Assembly: GCA_964648985.1 (NCBI GenBank)
Contig: CAZYMS010000001.1
Span: forward strand, 1,215 to 65,214
DNA length: 64,000 nt
Source of the DNA: an uncultured Candidatus Saccharibacteria bacterium
Lineage (GTDB): Bacteria > Patescibacteriota > Doudnabacteria > UBA920
Direction of reading: 5' to 3'
The position numbers and the translations under genes were made by a program. This document shows positions 2,675 through 53,697 of the stretch, in pieces. The notes under the pieces are model-generated. The model did not search any database. It saw only the letters and a list, made by a program, of their open reading frames with translations, and was not told the origin of the DNA. How positions within the stretch are numbered: the first letter of the stretch is position 1; each line of letters begins with the position of its first letter.

Positions 2675-4519
2675 TTGACAAAGAAGAGAGAAATAAGTAG
2701 AATCCTTTTTATGCGCTACACACTACAAAAGGACGCGCTGCTGGAAGCTGCGCGGAGCCACCTGGCGGAAGTCAGGGAAATTTTACAAAACAAGCTTGCG
2801 AAAGCTAAAGAAAATATTGGTGTATATAAGGAAAAGGTTAAAAAACTAAGTCCACCAGACCTTTACACCGCCCAGAGTCTTTTGAAAAAGAATGAACAGC
2901 TGGTAGAAGTGGCCAACGCACTCTATCCCTCACCATATTTTATAAAATGCACAGTTCAGTTCGACAGCCAAGAGAGTAGTCGGATTTTTTATTTCTCAAA
3001 ATTTGCCTTAGCAGAAGAAAATATTTATTCGTGGACCAGCCCTGCTGCAGTCCTTCGGTTTCAAGAACCCGGAACATTTGCCTACGCCTCGCCCGACGGA
3101 ACACAAAAAGGAACACTCCAAGAAAAAGAACAATACCTTATTACTGAGGGACACATTGTGTTCATGGCTGCTGAGAGCACCGAATACGCACGGCAACTTA
3201 TATATCAGGAACACTTCTCTAAACGCAAAACAGACTTTTTGTTACCAGAAATAGTGGAACAGATGGAAGCAGCGCAAGATAAAGCTATCCGCACAGCCCC
3301 ATCACGAAGCTTACTCATTGCCGGGCCCGCTGGATCTGGCAAAACCACTTTGGCACTACACCGCGTGGCCTACCTCCTCCAATCCCCAGACACTGCAGAG
3401 CGATTCACTGCGGAACGTACTTTAGTACTGGTAAATGACCACGGCACCCAGAAATACTTTGCAATGCTCTTACCTGAGCTCGGTATTACTAACGTGGCCA
3501 TAACAACTTTTGCCGACTTTGTATTAGAGAATATTGGACTACATGCATATACATACCAACCAATTGTAGGAGCTACGGAATACGAGCGCAACACATATGC
3601 GCACGAAAAAAATAGTGCTCTACAGGGTAGAGATGCAGTTACATACACCACAAACCCGTGGTCTGTACTCAAAACTACCTATGCAAATATTTTTAATGGT
3701 GAATATAGCTACTTACTTCGCGAGCAAGAATCTAGAAAAGTGCTCGACCGGTTCGATGTAACGCTTTTATTTCGGGCCTATTTGAATACTTTCGGCGGAC
3801 TCACTAACTACGAGACTGAGTACACACAGCTCAAAGGCGGAAAGGTCAGGCGCACAAAAAAGGCAGTATCAAAACAATATTCTCTCGTAATTTTAGATGA
3901 AGTACAAAACTATCTACCCGAGCAACTCCGGCTCATAGCGCAGTGTATTTCATCTGATGGGTCCTGCGTATATGTAGGCGATTTAGCACAACAAACCAAA
4001 CTGTTTACAATTCGGAACTGGGACCAAGTAGGGCAAGATTTTTCGGAAGAAAATACGGTCAGACTTCAAAAAGTATACCGTTCCACTAAACAAATATTGG
4101 AATACATACAAAACCAAGGATTCTCTGTGTCAATTCCTGAGCAAAGCCGTGAAGGAAAAGCCGTGGAGACCTATCAGTATTCTTCGCGTGCCGATATGGA
4201 CGCATTCATAGAAACTATCATAAACAGAAATGCAAATGTAACAATAGGTATATTAACTCTAGATCAAGAAACTGCACATGCGCACAGGGACAAGTACGCA
4301 AAGGCTGGCAATGTAAAAACGCTGAGCATTTCCGAAGCCCAAGGAGTAGAATTTGATGTCGTTATACTTTGCGATTTGAATAAGCTTGCTCAACAGCATG
4401 GTAAATACCCAGAAAACTTAGCATTACAAATTGCTGAAGTTAGTCGCGACTTACTCTATGTTGCCCTCACTCGGGCCATGAATGAACTATATATAGTAAA
4501 TGCAGCTCCGAATATATAA
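2675..4519 (+). CDS. SF1 UvrD-like helicase of the HelD (helicase IV) type
   Basis: N-terminal PYF...FYF...W.SP motif block typical of HelD. Walker A LIAGPAGSGKTT, Walker B VILDEV, and a C-terminal UvrD-like motif VALTRAMNELYIV. Confidence 0.6.
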   Translation: MTKKREISRILFMRYTLQKDALLEAARSHLAEVREILQNKLAKAKENIGVYKEKVKKLSPPDLYTAQSLLKKNEQLVEVANALYPSPYFIKCTVQFDSQESSRIFYFSKFALAEENIYSWTSPAAVLRFQEPGTFAYASPDGTQKGTLQEKEQYLITEGHIVFMAAESTEYARQLIYQEHFSKRKTDFLLPEIVEQMEAAQDKAIRTAPSRSLLIAGPAGSGKTTLALHRVAYLLQSPDTAERFTAERTLVLVNDHGTQKYFAMLLPELGITNVAITTFADFVLENIGLHAYTYQPIVGATEYERNTYAHEKNSALQGRDAVTYTTNPWSVLKTTYANIFNGEYSYLLREQESRKVLDRFDVTLLFRAYLNTFGGLTNYETEYTQLKGGKVRRTKKAVSKQYSLVILDEVQNYLPEQLRLIAQCISSDGSCVYVGDLAQQTKLFTIRNWDQVGQDFSEENTVRLQKVYRSTKQILEYIQNQGFSVSIPEQSREGKAVETYQYSSRADMDAFIETIINRNANVTIGILTLDQETAHAHRDKYAKAGNVKTLSISEAQGVEFDVVILCDLNKLAQQHGKYPENLALQIAEVSRDLLYVALTRAMNELYIVNAAPNI

Positions 4520-13343: not shown

Positions 13344-13487
13344 AAGCAAGTGCCTAATTCCTCCATCGTCGCTAAAGCTATGGCGGACAAGTAATATCTA
13401 ATTTCTAATAGAAGACCAGGGCTTTAGGAGATTTGTATTATATTTAGACATTAGGAATTAGAAATTAGGTATTTCTTTTGGTAATCG

Positions 13488-14552
13488 ATGCACATTCAAG
13501 AAATTACTGATACAGATAAAGATATATACAATGCCTTTGTTGCAAGCAACAACGGCTCTTTTTTGCAAAGCTATGAATGGGGCGAATGGCAGAAAAAAAA
13601 TGGCAGGAATGCAAGGAGATACACGTGCACAGACGAAACAGGCGCAGTACAACTTGCAGCGCAATTTCTAGTATACCCCCTACCCCTTGGACAGTTTTAT
13701 TTGTATTGCCCATATGGGCCAGTGGCAAATTCCCAATTTCCATCCGCCAGCTGGCGGACCAATTTCCAAACGGCGATACAAGAATTAATAGGGCAAATCA
13801 AAAGAGACCATCCAAAAGCATTATTTACCAAACTGGAACCAATAACGGCTTTCAACCTACAACCTACAACCTACAACCTACAACCTAGTTCCCGAATTCA
13901 ACCCGGTTCCACTTTGCTACTAGACCTCACAAAAACTGAGGAGCAATTGCAAATGGAAATGCACCAGAAGACCAGGTACAACATTAAGGTAGCCAATAAA
14001 CATGGGGTAGTTATTAAAACAGGCACAGATACAACAGGTCCTGAAGCAGAAGAAATACTGATGCTCATTACCAAAACCACAGAAAGACAGGCATATAAAG
14101 GCCATTCGCTTTCCTATTACCAAAACTTTTGCAAATTCTTTGCAGAAGCAGTGCAAAGAAAAAATAATATCAGTGAAATTTCCAACTTAGACACTCCCAG
14201 TATGCAGGTACGATGGTATGGCGCTTTTTACCAGGAACATCTTTTGTCGGGTGGTATATTTATTGATTTCGGCAACACTCGAACATATTTATACGGTGGC
14301 TCAAATGATGCAAAAAAAAACATAATGGCCCCCTACGCTTTGCACTGGCACGCCATACGCGATGCAAAACAAGAAGCAATCACACACTACGATATGGGCG
14401 GCCTTGAAACCAGTTCTGGCACCACCCCTGGCTTTGCCCGCTTTAAACTCGGATTCGGCGGTGGGACAACCCACTACCCAACCCCCACAGATATATCTTG
14501 GCACCCTACCAATTACAAAGTCTACAGGATCGCAAAAAAAATATTGAGATAG
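13488..14552 (+). CDS. FemAB-family peptidoglycan peptidyl-transferase (aminoacyl-tRNA dependent)
   Basis: FLQSYEWGEW N-terminal block and KTRYNIKVANKHGV motif typical of FemABX. Adjacent to a Mur-ligase gene. Confidence 0.65.
   Translation: MHIQEITDTDKDIYNAFVASNNGSFLQSYEWGEWQKKNGRNARRYTCTDETGAVQLAAQFLVYPLPLGQFYLYCPYGPVANSQFPSASWRTNFQTAIQELIGQIKRDHPKALFTKLEPITAFNLQPTTYNLQPSSRIQPGSTLLLDLTKTEEQLQMEMHQKTRYNIKVANKHGVVIKTGTDTTGPEAEEILMLITKTTERQAYKGHSLSYYQNFCKFFAEAVQRKNNISEISNLDTPSMQVRWYGAFYQEHLLSGGIFIDFGNTRTYLYGGSNDAKKNIMAPYALHWHAIRDAKQEAITHYDMGGLETSSGTTPGFARFKLGFGGGTTHYPTPTDISWHPTNYKVYRIAKKILR
13853..13887 (+). repeat. Perfect heptanucleotide tandem repeat (CAACCTA)x5, in frame inside the FemAB-like CDS
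   Basis: Five exact copies read from the sequence. They encode NLQPTTYNLQPS. Confidence 0.9.
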
Positions 14553-18044: not shown

Positions 18045-18245
18045 ACTATCATTTTACCACAGATACACAGATTTCACGGACCACATAGATGTTAACGATT
18101 CGCATCTGTGTGATTGGTTTTATCTGTGCATCTGTGGTCTATACAATCTGACTAAAGACTTCCGCCCAAGGCGGGTCCACCCTAAAAACTGCATTTATTC
18201 GCGGAAAGGATTAACGATTAAGGATAGTTCCGCTATACTACCTCC

Positions 18246-19595
18246 ATGATACGTGTGATAAAAAATTTTGCTCGAAAACTTATACCTGCTGGAATATTTA
18301 AGGCTGCCCAGCCGTATTACCATGGTTTACTTGCTACATGTGCCCACTATTATTACGGACAACCCAGCAATAAGCTTATTATAATAAGCGTAACTGGTAC
18401 TAAAGGCAAAACCTCTACCGCGCATATTATCTACCAAACCCTTAACAACTTAGGAGCTCCGTGCGGATTAGTCACCACTGCAGTAATTGATGACGGCTCT
18501 GGACAGCGCATGAACGAATATCGCATGACACAAATGTCCGGCCCAGTTACTCACAATCTTCTTGCGCACATGGTAAAGGCAGGAAAAAAGTATGCGGTTG
18601 TGGAAGTATCCAGTGAAGGACTAGCTCAGCACCGACATCTAGGCGTTAATTTTGATATAGCAGTATTTACCAATCTATCGCCCGACCACGTAGATGCCCA
18701 CGGAAGTTTTCAAGCGTATAAAGAAGCCAAAGGAATACTGTTTAAGACACTCGGTAAGTTACAAGTTACAAGTTACAAGTTACAAGTAAATCCGGTTATA
18801 GCAAAGACAATTGTTTCGAATGTAGATAGTGAGCACGGGTTATATTACCTCAATTTTAAGGCGGATAAGCATATCACGTACGGCATAGAAAATTCCTCAG
18901 CGAATCTAGTGGCGAAGGACATCCAAACTTCAACAAATGGCAGTGTATTCAACTTGTCACTTGTCACTTGTCACTTGTCACTACCCGGCAAATTTAATAT
19001 CTATAATGCGCTTGCTTCAGTGGCAGTAGCTGAGTCGCTCGGGTTCAATAAAGAGGTAATAGCAAAAGCGTTAGAGAAGCTACAGCCAATTCCGGGGCGC
19101 ATGGAAGTTTTACAGGTAGAACCCTTTACCGTACTTGTAGATTACGCTCATGAAAAAGCATCTATGACCGCACTCTATGAGACAGTAAAAAGCTGGCCAC
19201 ACAAACGCATTATTCAAGTATTTGGCGCAACAGGTGGCGTGCGGGATAAATCCAGACGAACCGACCTGGGAACCCTTGCGGGTAAGTTTACAGATATAGC
19301 TATAATTACAGATGAAGACCCATTCGACGAGGACCCACAAACTATAATTGATGATATTGCAGACACAGCAGTAGCAGAAGGTAGGGTTATTGGAAAAGAT
19401 TTATTTAGGAACTCAGATCGCCGCGGCGCCATAGCCCAAGCCCTTTCTCTTGCCAAGCCCGGGGACCTAGTACTCATAACAGGTAAAGGAGCGGAACAAA
19501 AAATCGCCCGTGCCAATGGCCAGTACGAAGAATGGGATGATCGGATAGTTACACAAGAACTACTCTCGGAACTGTCGCGAACCCCTAACCCGTGA
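18246..19595 (+). CDS. Mur ligase family protein (MurE/MurT-like) lacking the canonical N-terminal domain
   Basis: P-loop VTGTKGKTSTAHI, DYAHEKASM, C-terminal ITGKGAEQ. Central and C-terminal Mur ligase domains are recognisable. Confidence 0.7.
   Translation: MIRVIKNFARKLIPAGIFKAAQPYYHGLLATCAHYYYGQPSNKLIIISVTGTKGKTSTAHIIYQTLNNLGAPCGLVTTAVIDDGSGQRMNEYRMTQMSGPVTHNLLAHMVKAGKKYAVVEVSSEGLAQHRHLGVNFDIAVFTNLSPDHVDAHGSFQAYKEAKGILFKTLGKLQVTSYKLQVNPVIAKTIVSNVDSEHGLYYLNFKADKHITYGIENSSANLVAKDIQTSTNGSVFNLSLVTCHLSLPGKFNIYNALASVAVAESLGFNKEVIAKALEKLQPIPGRMEVLQVEPFTVLVDYAHEKASMTALYETVKSWPHKRIIQVFGATGGVRDKSRRTDLGTLAGKFTDIAIITDEDPFDEDPQTIIDDIADTAVAEGRVIGKDLFRNSDRRGAIAQALSLAKPGDLVLITGKGAEQKIARANGQYEEWDDRIVTQELLSELSRTPNP
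18758..18787 (+). repeat. Perfect heptanucleotide repeat (GTTACAA)x4, in frame in the Mur-ligase CDS
   Basis: Four exact copies. They encode LQVTSYKLQV. Confidence 0.9.
18952..18982 (+). repeat. Perfect heptanucleotide repeat (ACTTGTC)x4, in frame in the Mur-ligase CDS; a near reverse-complement of the upstream (GTTACAA)n array
   Basis: Four exact copies. The reverse complement of GTTACAAGT is ACTTGTAAC, versus ACTTGTCAC here. Encodes SLVTCHLS. Confidence 0.9.
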
Positions 19596-19608
19596 GTGGC
19601 ATTCTTTC

Positions 19609-19632
19609 ATAATTCTTAATTCTTAATTCATG
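19609..19632 (+). repeat. Heptamer direct repeat (TAATTCT)x3 spanning the start codon of the TsaB-like ORF
   Basis: Read directly: ataattcttaattcttaattcatg. Confidence 0.7.
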
Positions 19633-19956
19633 ATTCTCCATCTTAATACCACGAAACTTGAACGGATCGAATTCAAGCTACTAGATGGTAAAAAAACCAT
19701 AGCCGAGGATACTGTAGCACTTGAATATCACGAAAACGGTGACATACTTAAACACCTTGAAGCATTTTTGCGAAAACAAAAAGTAAAGAGTTTGGCATCG
19801 GGCTCTAAAAACCTACAACCTACAACCTACAACCTAATTACTGGTATTCGCGTTTCTGCCGGCACCGGTTCTTACACCGGCATCCGTGTAGGGACTTCTA
19901 TTGCGCAGGCACTAAGCCTTGCCTGGAATGTGCCTTTAAAAATTAAGAGCACCTAA
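19630..19956 (+). CDS. TsaB/YeaZ-like protein, N-terminal domain only (108 aa)
   Basis: ITGIRVSAGTGSYTGIRVGTSIAQALSLAWNVPL matches the TsaB GPGSFTGLRIG...A.ALA...P motif region. The ORF ends about 100 aa short of a typical TsaB. Confidence 0.5.
   Translation: MILHLNTTKLERIEFKLLDGKKTIAEDTVALEYHENGDILKHLEAFLRKQKVKSLASGSKNLQPTTYNLITGIRVSAGTGSYTGIRVGTSIAQALSLAWNVPLKIKST
19810..19836 (+). repeat. Heptanucleotide repeat (AACCTAC)x3.9, in frame in the TsaB-like CDS; same unit and phase as the array in the FemAB-like gene
   Basis: Encodes NLQPTTYNL, the same peptide as at 13853-13887. Confidence 0.9.
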
Positions 19957-53503: not shown

Positions 53504-53697
53504 GTGGATATGTGGACAAACCGGAATAGAATCAAGAATTATGAATTAAGAATTAAGCGAAAACATATTTTTTATCGACAATGAGTTCGAACAACTTGTG
53601 TATAGTCCGTGTGAGTAAATGGGGAAAAGTGCGGACTTTGTCTTTGGGGCATGAGTTATCAACCACCTATTAGGGGTTTGTACTGTGCTTTTCCACA
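53504..53697. promoter_or_regulatory. Cluster of DnaA-box-like 9-mers in the dnaA-dnaN intergenic region
   Basis: tgtggacaa and gtggatat (overlapping, 53504-53519), ttatcgaca (53572-53580), ttttccaca (53689-53697). Each is one mismatch or fewer from TTATCCACA. Confidence 0.45.
53529..53560. repeat. Degenerate heptamer array (GAATAGA/ATCAAGA/ATTATGA/ATTAAGA/ATTAAGC) upstream of dnaN
   Basis: Read directly. The reverse complement matches the TTAATTCTTAATTCAT motif at 19609. Confidence 0.55.

Follow-up and report, generated by a model that had tools for sequence, protein, structure and literature searches.

Heptanucleotide arrays at fixed, in-frame positions of murE and other housekeeping genes in Patescibacteria

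Heptameric simple repeats are over-represented in bacteria and polymerase slippage has been proposed as their cause, as set out in passages of two studies (PMC4679880, PMC4692102). In those passages the heptamer repeats of Xanthomonas/Nostoc and of the Beggiatoaceae are described as lying mostly between genes, with copy numbers that vary (PMC4692102, PMC4679880). Here we describe two perfect arrays of 7-nucleotide (nt) units, at positions 18756-18787 (site 1) and 18952-18982 (site 2), which lie in frame within a gene for a MurE-type Mur ligase. The DNA is a 64,000-nt stretch of contig CAZYMS010000001.1 from an uncultured Candidatus Saccharibacteria bacterium, and this whole stretch is referred to below as the window. 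The proteins and loci closest to those of the window were from Candidatus Doudnabacteria-like Patescibacteria, also referred to as the candidate phyla radiation (CPR).

Several described systems share features with these arrays. The short tandemly repeated repetitive (STRR) sequences of heterocystous cyanobacteria (Calothrix/Nostoc) and the heptamer excess of Mrazek et al. 2007, as summarised in the relevant passages of PMC4679880 and PMC4692102, are alike in having tandem 7-nt units in few copies, a period of 7 favoured over its neighbours and unit families that differ by genome. Unlike STRR sequences, which are mainly intergenic and variable in copy number, the arrays in loci from the clade of the window are not predominantly intergenic, as 27 of 32 were inside open reading frames (ORFs), and they occupy fixed positions in housekeeping genes with a fixed length. 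The TAACTGA repeats of Beggiatoaceae and cyanobacteria, as described in part of PMC4679880, have two to six copies and are often directly upstream of start codons, as are the window arrays at 19606-19637 and 13444-13473. In reverse orientation they encode the 7-residue repeat LSVISYQ, with predicted antiparallel beta structure, which can be compared with LSLVTCH at site 2 (PMC4679880). According to the same account a single heptamer dominates each genome, only 25 of the 170 sets fall outside intergenic DNA, and the ORF cases are mostly in hypothetical proteins (PMC4679880), whereas in our loci there are many units, mostly in conserved enzymes and with positional homology across orthologs. The GGGAATC/GGGGAYT repeats of Xanthomonas/Nostoc similarly show a preference for about four units, and inverted array pairs able to form stem-loops have been noted among them (in passages of PMC4692102); unlike those repeats, the arrays here are A/T-rich and coding and cannot form G-quadruplexes. 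Finally, the phase-variable contingency loci of Haemophilus/Neisseria also have a non-triplet tandem repeat tied to a gene (e.g., the heptanucleotide repeats at hmw1A, PMC8262952), but among our orthologs there was no copy-number variation and there were no on/off alleles, and the targets are housekeeping genes.

Tandem 7-nt units with an excess of period 7 are a known class, and what is new here is the coding location and the fixed length. No description of heptamer arrays in Patescibacteria was found in the literature, of which coverage was incomplete, and the papers that were found make no mention of the host lineage.

Two arrays in a MurE-type gene and the same slots in its orthologs

The gene that hosts both arrays (18246..19595, forward strand) encodes 449 residues and ends in a TGA stop codon. 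Its assignment was based on the ORF list, on matches to Pfam Mur_ligase_M and Mur_ligase_C (E 7e-42 and 3e-26), on a TIGR01085 murE score of 335.7 bits (cut-off 257.3), on matches to MurE structures in the PDB with E as low as 2e-57, and on an AlphaFold2 model. The canonical N-terminal UDP-MurNAc-binding domain 1 is missing from the protein, as matches began at profile position 64-94 and at residue 123 of the Mycobacterium tuberculosis MurE structure (2WTZ). In place of that domain the model has two N-terminal helices, an arrangement common to all close Patescibacteria orthologs.

Sequence inspection and Tandem Repeats Finder identified the site 1 array as (AAGTTAC)x4.6, perfect over 32 nt (18756..18787, forward strand; the unit is a rotation of GTTACAA), and the site 2 array as (ACTTGTC)x4.4, perfect over 31 nt (18952..18982, forward strand), with 164 nt between them. 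Both are heptanucleotide simple repeats in the usual sense of at least three head-to-tail copies of high identity. Two perfect heptamer arrays within a Mur-ligase gene, read in frame as LQVTSYKLQV and SLVTCHLS, were what the initial annotation had described, and both descriptions proved accurate: site 1 encodes K171-LQVTSYKLQV-181 and site 2 encodes N236-LSLVTCHLSL-246. The AlphaFold2 model had a predicted local distance difference test (pLDDT) score of 89.8, with high values at both array sites. In the model, site 1 forms a loop plus a short helix (176-181) and site 2 forms a beta-hairpin (strands 233-237 and 240-244). Relative to 2WTZ, site 1 falls within an extra 12-residue segment that is shared by distant Patescibacteria, and site 2 takes the position of a canonical hairpin. 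The extra segment around site 1 is old and clade-wide.

The two arrays are not chance occurrences. Over 100 dinucleotide-preserving shuffles the expectation for 21-nt array patterns was 0.00. When the window was searched at periods 4-12, all six of the arrays found had a period of 7, and 50 shuffles gave none; when arrays with at least three perfect copies were counted there were four at period 7, although period 4 likewise gave four such perfect runs. The excess of period 7 over its neighbours was also apparent at the level of the lineage. In 227 kb of clade loci there were 32 period-7 arrays versus none at periods 5, 6, 8, 9 and 10, and in 862 kb of CPR loci there were 53 perfect period-7 arrays (at least 19 nt) versus 6, 3, 1, 0 and 0 at those same periods. 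By the same count, 290 kb from non-CPR loci had a single perfect array. Mis-assembly, which the initial annotation had named as a possible undoing of its finding, was ruled out because a read is longer than an array (~32 nt) and because independent assemblies (SPAdes, MEGAHIT and Logan) have arrays at the same positions.

To place the arrays among their relatives, 14 orthologous murE genes were compared as DNA (L001-L007, L078 and L081-L086) and 33 orthologs were aligned as proteins. All 16 strongly 7-periodic segments in the 14 genes fell at nt 503-547 or 690-742 of the coding sequence (CDS), matching the two slots of the window gene (site 1, nt 511-542; site 2, nt 707-737), and no segment in these genes exceeded the threshold at lags of 5, 6, 8, 9 or 10. 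The units in the slots were varied. At site 1 the unit was AAGTTAC in the window and L081, AAGAGAC in L002 and L085, AAATTAC in L004, GAATTAC in L083, L084 and L086, and AAGTGAC in L005; imperfect 7-periodic versions were present in L001, L003 and L006, and there was no periodicity in L007 and L078, the most distant pair. At site 2 the unit was ACTTGTC in the window and L083, ACTTGCC or mixed in L081 and L002, TTTTCAA in L001 and L085, TTGCGAA/TTACGAA in L086, AACTTAC in L003, TATCAGG-like in L087 and AGTTTCG in L208.

The length of the slots, by comparison with their units, was nearly invariant. Thirteen of the 14 genes had equal length at the slots and identical array boundaries in the DNA were found among the 14; the exception in length was L005, with a 28-residue insertion. 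In the protein alignment, site 1 had no gaps or length differences, and Thr175 and Lys178 within it were invariant, while site 2 differed in length in only three of the 33 proteins, each by an in-frame insertion. Copy-number variation between related genomes was therefore not seen in either data set, and the arrays were identical in L081 and L082, two samples of the closest relative. The initial annotation had treated the encoded peptides as insertions; they are not, as the window protein and its closest relatives align without gaps at both sites. It had also allowed that the residues might be ancestral and the repeat structure a coincidence, and here the first half holds, in that the positions are ancestral, while the repeat structure is a recurrent property at the DNA level.

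Two other insertions were observed in these genes. The L005 insertion that breaks site 2 (~4280-4345) is G+C-rich and has terminal inverted repeats (GTCATC...GATGAC), and its hairpin fold had a modest z of -1.77. In L083 and L084, a lineage-specific, in-frame insertion of 14 residues (SSSSPSIGEVRRGT) is present in the C-terminal domain of MurE (residues ~375-390).

Change and exchange of the array units

Pairwise comparisons revealed differences that were repeated from unit to unit. In L083 and L002, CDS nt 655-755 (101 nt) were identical save for T>C at 719 and 726, a spacing of exactly one unit, and the window differed from L081 by T>C at 719, 726 and 733. The site 2 array of L086 consisted of (TTGCGAA)x2 followed by (TTACGAA)x2. 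Other comparisons revealed near-identical arrays between flanks that differed mostly at third codon positions. For example, the window and L083 had 0/31 differences in the site 2 array and 40/120 in the flanks, L001 and L085 had 2/36 and 41/120, and the window and L081 had 0/28 and 27/120 at site 1. Conversely, L083 and L086 were 95-100% identical on either side of site 2 and 28-50% identical across a tract that reached beyond the array, and alleles of the two sites occurred in reassorted combinations among the orthologs. Together, these comparisons show that the units of an array change together and that homologous recombination carries array alleles from one lineage to another. The murE gene is a mosaic, in which long tracts with 95-100% identity alternated with tracts of 30-70% (L083 vs L086, L002 vs L085 and L002 vs L083), and this indicates frequent homologous recombination among diverged CPR populations.

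We consider it probable that these arrays are self-homogenising, in-frame heptanucleotide microsatellites, with protein structure acting as a filter and recombination as the means of exchange. The same 7-mer is read in all three codon phases, which neither selection at the protein level nor duplication of 21 nt can yield; a process at the DNA level with a step of 7 bases is at work, and it maintains a near-perfect tandem array in each slot. The process is probably repair synthesis on slipped or out-of-register strands, or else template switching. Selection would then act as a filter on the heptamers. A unit would have to be free of stop codons in all three frames; at site 2 it would have to encode a repeat of hydrophobic-x-hydrophobic plus a 4-residue turn that fits the beta-hairpin, and at site 1 it would have to retain the invariant Thr and Lys. 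The constant length of the arrays follows from the gene being essential and from 7 not being a multiple of 3. From one unit to the next, each position of the heptamer moves through codon positions 1, 2 and 3; no homogenised change can therefore be silent, and for this reason arrays are often more conserved than adjacent synonymous sites, with no need for an extra function.

Arrays in other genes and genomes

Within the window, in-frame arrays were also identified in two other genes. A FemAB-family gene (13488-14552; repeat finding and Pfam) contains (CAACCTA)x5 at 13853..13887 on the forward strand, encoding NLQPTTYNLQP. In relatives the same slot contained (C/A)ACCTAC x5 (L007) or TTCGAAA x4 (L085/L086). 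Between L007 and L078, whose murE genes are 88% identical, the FemAB slot had been remodelled in place with a 6-nt change in length, and the flanks were ordinarily diverged. The second gene is TsaB-like and short (19630-19956), and has (AACCTAC)x3.9 in frame at 19810..19836 on the forward strand, a unit it shares with the FemAB array. In the nearest relatives this slot contained an AACTGAC-type array, unlike the window. Neither the FemAB nor the TsaB array had an inverted partner. The TsaB-like protein has 108 residues and matched only the N-terminal part of the 212-position TsaB profile; its relatives have 94-112 residues, indicating that the short form is conserved.

Arrays at homologous slots were not confined to these genes. 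In UvrB, different heptamer arrays were at one homologous slot in L006 (15006-15042) and L007 (13457-13489), two distant members of the clade; this slot is a variable linker immediately before the conserved EQIIRPTG motif. In-frame arrays were also found in TsaD, RsmA, a 5'-3' exonuclease and HolA (DNA polymerase III delta) of other CPR loci. The arrays of a single genome tended to have units in common, in either orientation. When array pairs with at most one mismatch were counted, they made up 28% of within-locus pairs versus 11% of between-locus pairs (permutation p ~0.001, with genome base composition not controlled), and the exact within-genome pairs came mostly from a few genomes. In L086, for instance, the GAATTAC unit was present at the FemAB site and at both murE sites. 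Beyond these loci, a metagenome scan for (AAGTKAC)x3 gave over 120 contigs that differed widely in G+C; the arrays were mostly located in short ORFs or in non-coding-looking context, and none of these was an orthologous murE; given this spread, the unit is not lineage-specific.

A further set of arrays is A/T-rich and intergenic: window 19606-19637, 13444-13473 and 53528-53557, L001 7950-7969, L085 5904-5931 and L086 5951-5980. The array at 19606..19637 (forward strand) is an imperfect (TAATTCT)n that overlaps the start codon of the TsaB-like gene, and its unit is the reverse complement of that at 53528-53557. Arrays of this kind (TAATTCT/AGAATTA, ATTAGAA/ATTAGGA) were located just upstream of or over start codons (TsaB-like, FemAB and murE), and those close to start codons may be 5' untranslated region or promoter elements. 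The intergenic DNA upstream of murE (18058-18072, 18104-18136 and 18162-18175) also contains two copies of CACAGAT and three of its complement, ATCTGTG, as well as a small hairpin, CCGCCCAAGGCGGG, of which a near-identical motif follows a heptamer array in L001 (~2578).

An element of ~30 nt with a hairpin, CCACCTnnGnCAAGGCTTYGGTGGGCAAGC (CCACCT..CAAGGCTTYGGTGGGCAAGC; translated ..HL.QGFGGQA..), was observed in frame in the middle of heptamer arrays at L208 1708-1737 (murE site 2) and L006 2024-2053 (the FemAB slot), with related copies in L005 (minus strand, 535) and L122 (9604). In appearance it is a very small dispersed element that either targets arrays or originates within them. Elhai et al. 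are said to have described, in 2008, very small dispersed repeats (SDR, 21-27 nt) of Nostoc, and the CPR element, from two genes in two CPR genomes, can be likened to these, although its sequence and phylum are different.

The near-inverted relation and competing explanations

The reverse complement of the site 2 array is (AAGTGAC)n, with one mismatch per unit to the AAGTTAC of site 1, in agreement with the near-inverted relation recorded in the initial annotation. In the predicted minimum free energy fold, site 1 pairs with site 2 as four 6-bp blocks, with 27 of 31 positions paired and a duplex energy of -29.9 kcal/mol. The RNA fold (-57.4 kcal/mol) had a z of -2.07 relative to shuffled sequences and the DNA fold a z of -2.39. 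The mismatch is forced, since a perfect complement at site 1 would give AAG TGA, reading K*QVTSDK* (TGA being the stop codon of murE itself), and a perfect complement at site 2 would give TTG TAA, reading NL*LVTCNL*. The complementarity of the two arrays is the maximum that both reading frames permit. Window site 2 has, in addition, the exact reverse complement of the site 1 unit of L005. A perfectly complementary inverted pair, (AAGTTAC)x4 and (ACTTGTA)x3, ~85 nt apart, was observed in apparently non-coding DNA at 946-973 and 1060-1080 of L149, an unrelated metagenome contig; this is the murE pair in unconstrained form.

These properties bring to mind an RNA or DNA stem, either an mRNA structure or a cruciform, selected for regulation of murE expression or stability. 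The strength of the predicted duplex, its z values and a complementarity as high as the frames allow are all in its favor, and partial pairing of the two sites was also predicted in L081, L002, L001 and L003. However, there was no pairing in six of 12 orthologs (L083, L084, L086, L004, L006 and L007), L086 has one unit at both sites in direct orientation, and the natural recombinant L085 had weak complementarity (-5.1 kcal/mol). Covariation between the sites was weak, with p = 0.028 in an own-versus-cross pairing test on data that are non-independent, the Rfam search found no matching family, the stem would be located in a translated region, and the FemAB and TsaB arrays are partnerless. With pairing missing in half of the orthologs, a conserved hairpin function is unlikely, and we regard a selected stem as improbable. 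The cruciform or stem-loop proposed in the initial annotation is thus possible as a predicted fold, while a conserved stem is contradicted by the orthologs without pairing and by the recombinant alleles that break it. The same annotation had proposed the footprint of a repeat-mediated rearrangement, and two imperfect ~31-nt inverted repeats flanking 164 nt could indeed be the termini of a small mobile element or of a segment that inverts within the gene. We give this hardly any credence: the 164 nt are ordinary conserved MurE sequence that can be aligned to 2WTZ, to other solved MurE structures and to all orthologs, inversion of 18756-18982 creates stop codons in all three frames, and the arrays that orthologs carry at these sites are in direct orientation or unrelated. 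On the first two of these grounds a recoding inverton or mobile element was ruled out. Overall, a conserved hairpin, cruciform or inverton in murE is unlikely. Phase variation, in which gain or loss of a 7-nt unit would frameshift murE (and femX and tsaB) and switch it off or on, has in its favor that non-triplet simple repeats in coding regions are the classical device and that the cell wall is the target of two of the three gene products. It is nonetheless very improbable here. All 33 orthologous proteins were in frame, the three length changes at site 2 were all in-frame insertions, the L081 and L082 arrays were identical, and the sole truncated homolog examined (P0084) was due to a scaffold gap (a run of N) and not to a frameshift; moreover, the arrays have merely four to five units and the genes are housekeeping genes.

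The most serious alternative is that the arrays form a dispersed, genome-specific repeat family that is actively copied from one locus to another, in either orientation, whether through ectopic or template-switch conversion or through a dedicated templated enzyme, overwriting tolerant slots in housekeeping genes, with the inverted pair in murE as the result of one copying event. Inter-array copying is kept open mainly by the window TsaB gene, which has the FemAB unit where its nearest relatives have AACTGAC. It would also accommodate the reverse-complementary window arrays at 19610 and 53528, the three GAATTAC sites of L086, the within-locus similarity of units, the match in reverse complement between window site 2 and L005 site 1, the array-limited identity between diverged lineages and the perfect inverted pair in L149. 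On the other side, the permutation test had no control for base composition and few genomes give most of the exact pairs, the flanks outside arrays are not shared, the recombination tracts of L083/L086 run past the array, so that ordinary allele exchange accounts for some replacements, and no candidate enzyme turned up, though none was specifically sought. We therefore view such copying as a minority possibility, and the broader proposal of a Patescibacteria-wide process that writes and rewrites perfect 7-nt arrays into fixed tolerant housekeeping slots, with arrays copied from one another, is likewise tentative. If true, array copying would make the arrays a novel type of dispersed repeat within genes, one that generates protein segments specific to CPR, and the murE inverted pair would be a copying event limited only by the avoidance of stop codons.

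Our preferred explanation of self-homogenising arrays also has several observations weighing against it. It does not account for an exchange of units that avoids a frameshifted intermediate. The conservation of the FemAB unit (A/C)ACCTAC over very deep divergence suggests a stronger constraint than would be expected under neutrality. Sharing of units is more frequent within genomes than between them, which plain local slippage does not predict. Lastly, in two pairs of genes the tract of high identity matches the array almost exactly, and such array-limited identity could mean nucleotide-level selection or array-specific transfer. As to the near-inverted relation itself, it is most likely a by-product of the sharing of units within a genome in either orientation, by common origin or by inter-array copying, and not a selected hairpin.

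Essential coding sequence would be expected to lose any non-triplet microsatellite. In these genes, perfect non-triplet arrays persist at homologous positions across a deep bacterial clade, with their units changing together and their length fixed, and they provide a natural system for studying the homogenisation of tandem units without length change. Repeat dynamics at the DNA level dictate protein sequence here, as in the 7-residue periodic hairpin that is read in all three frames. For practical purposes, the arrays in metagenome-assembled genomes are genuine and should not be "corrected", and they distort alignments, estimates of the ratio of non-synonymous to synonymous substitution rates (dN/dS) and recombination tests in the genes that contain them. 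Arrays of 7-base units at fixed, structurally tolerant spots of housekeeping genes are a so far undescribed habit of Patescibacteria/CPR, and a possible source of the lineage-specific protein segments that are typical of CPR bacteria.

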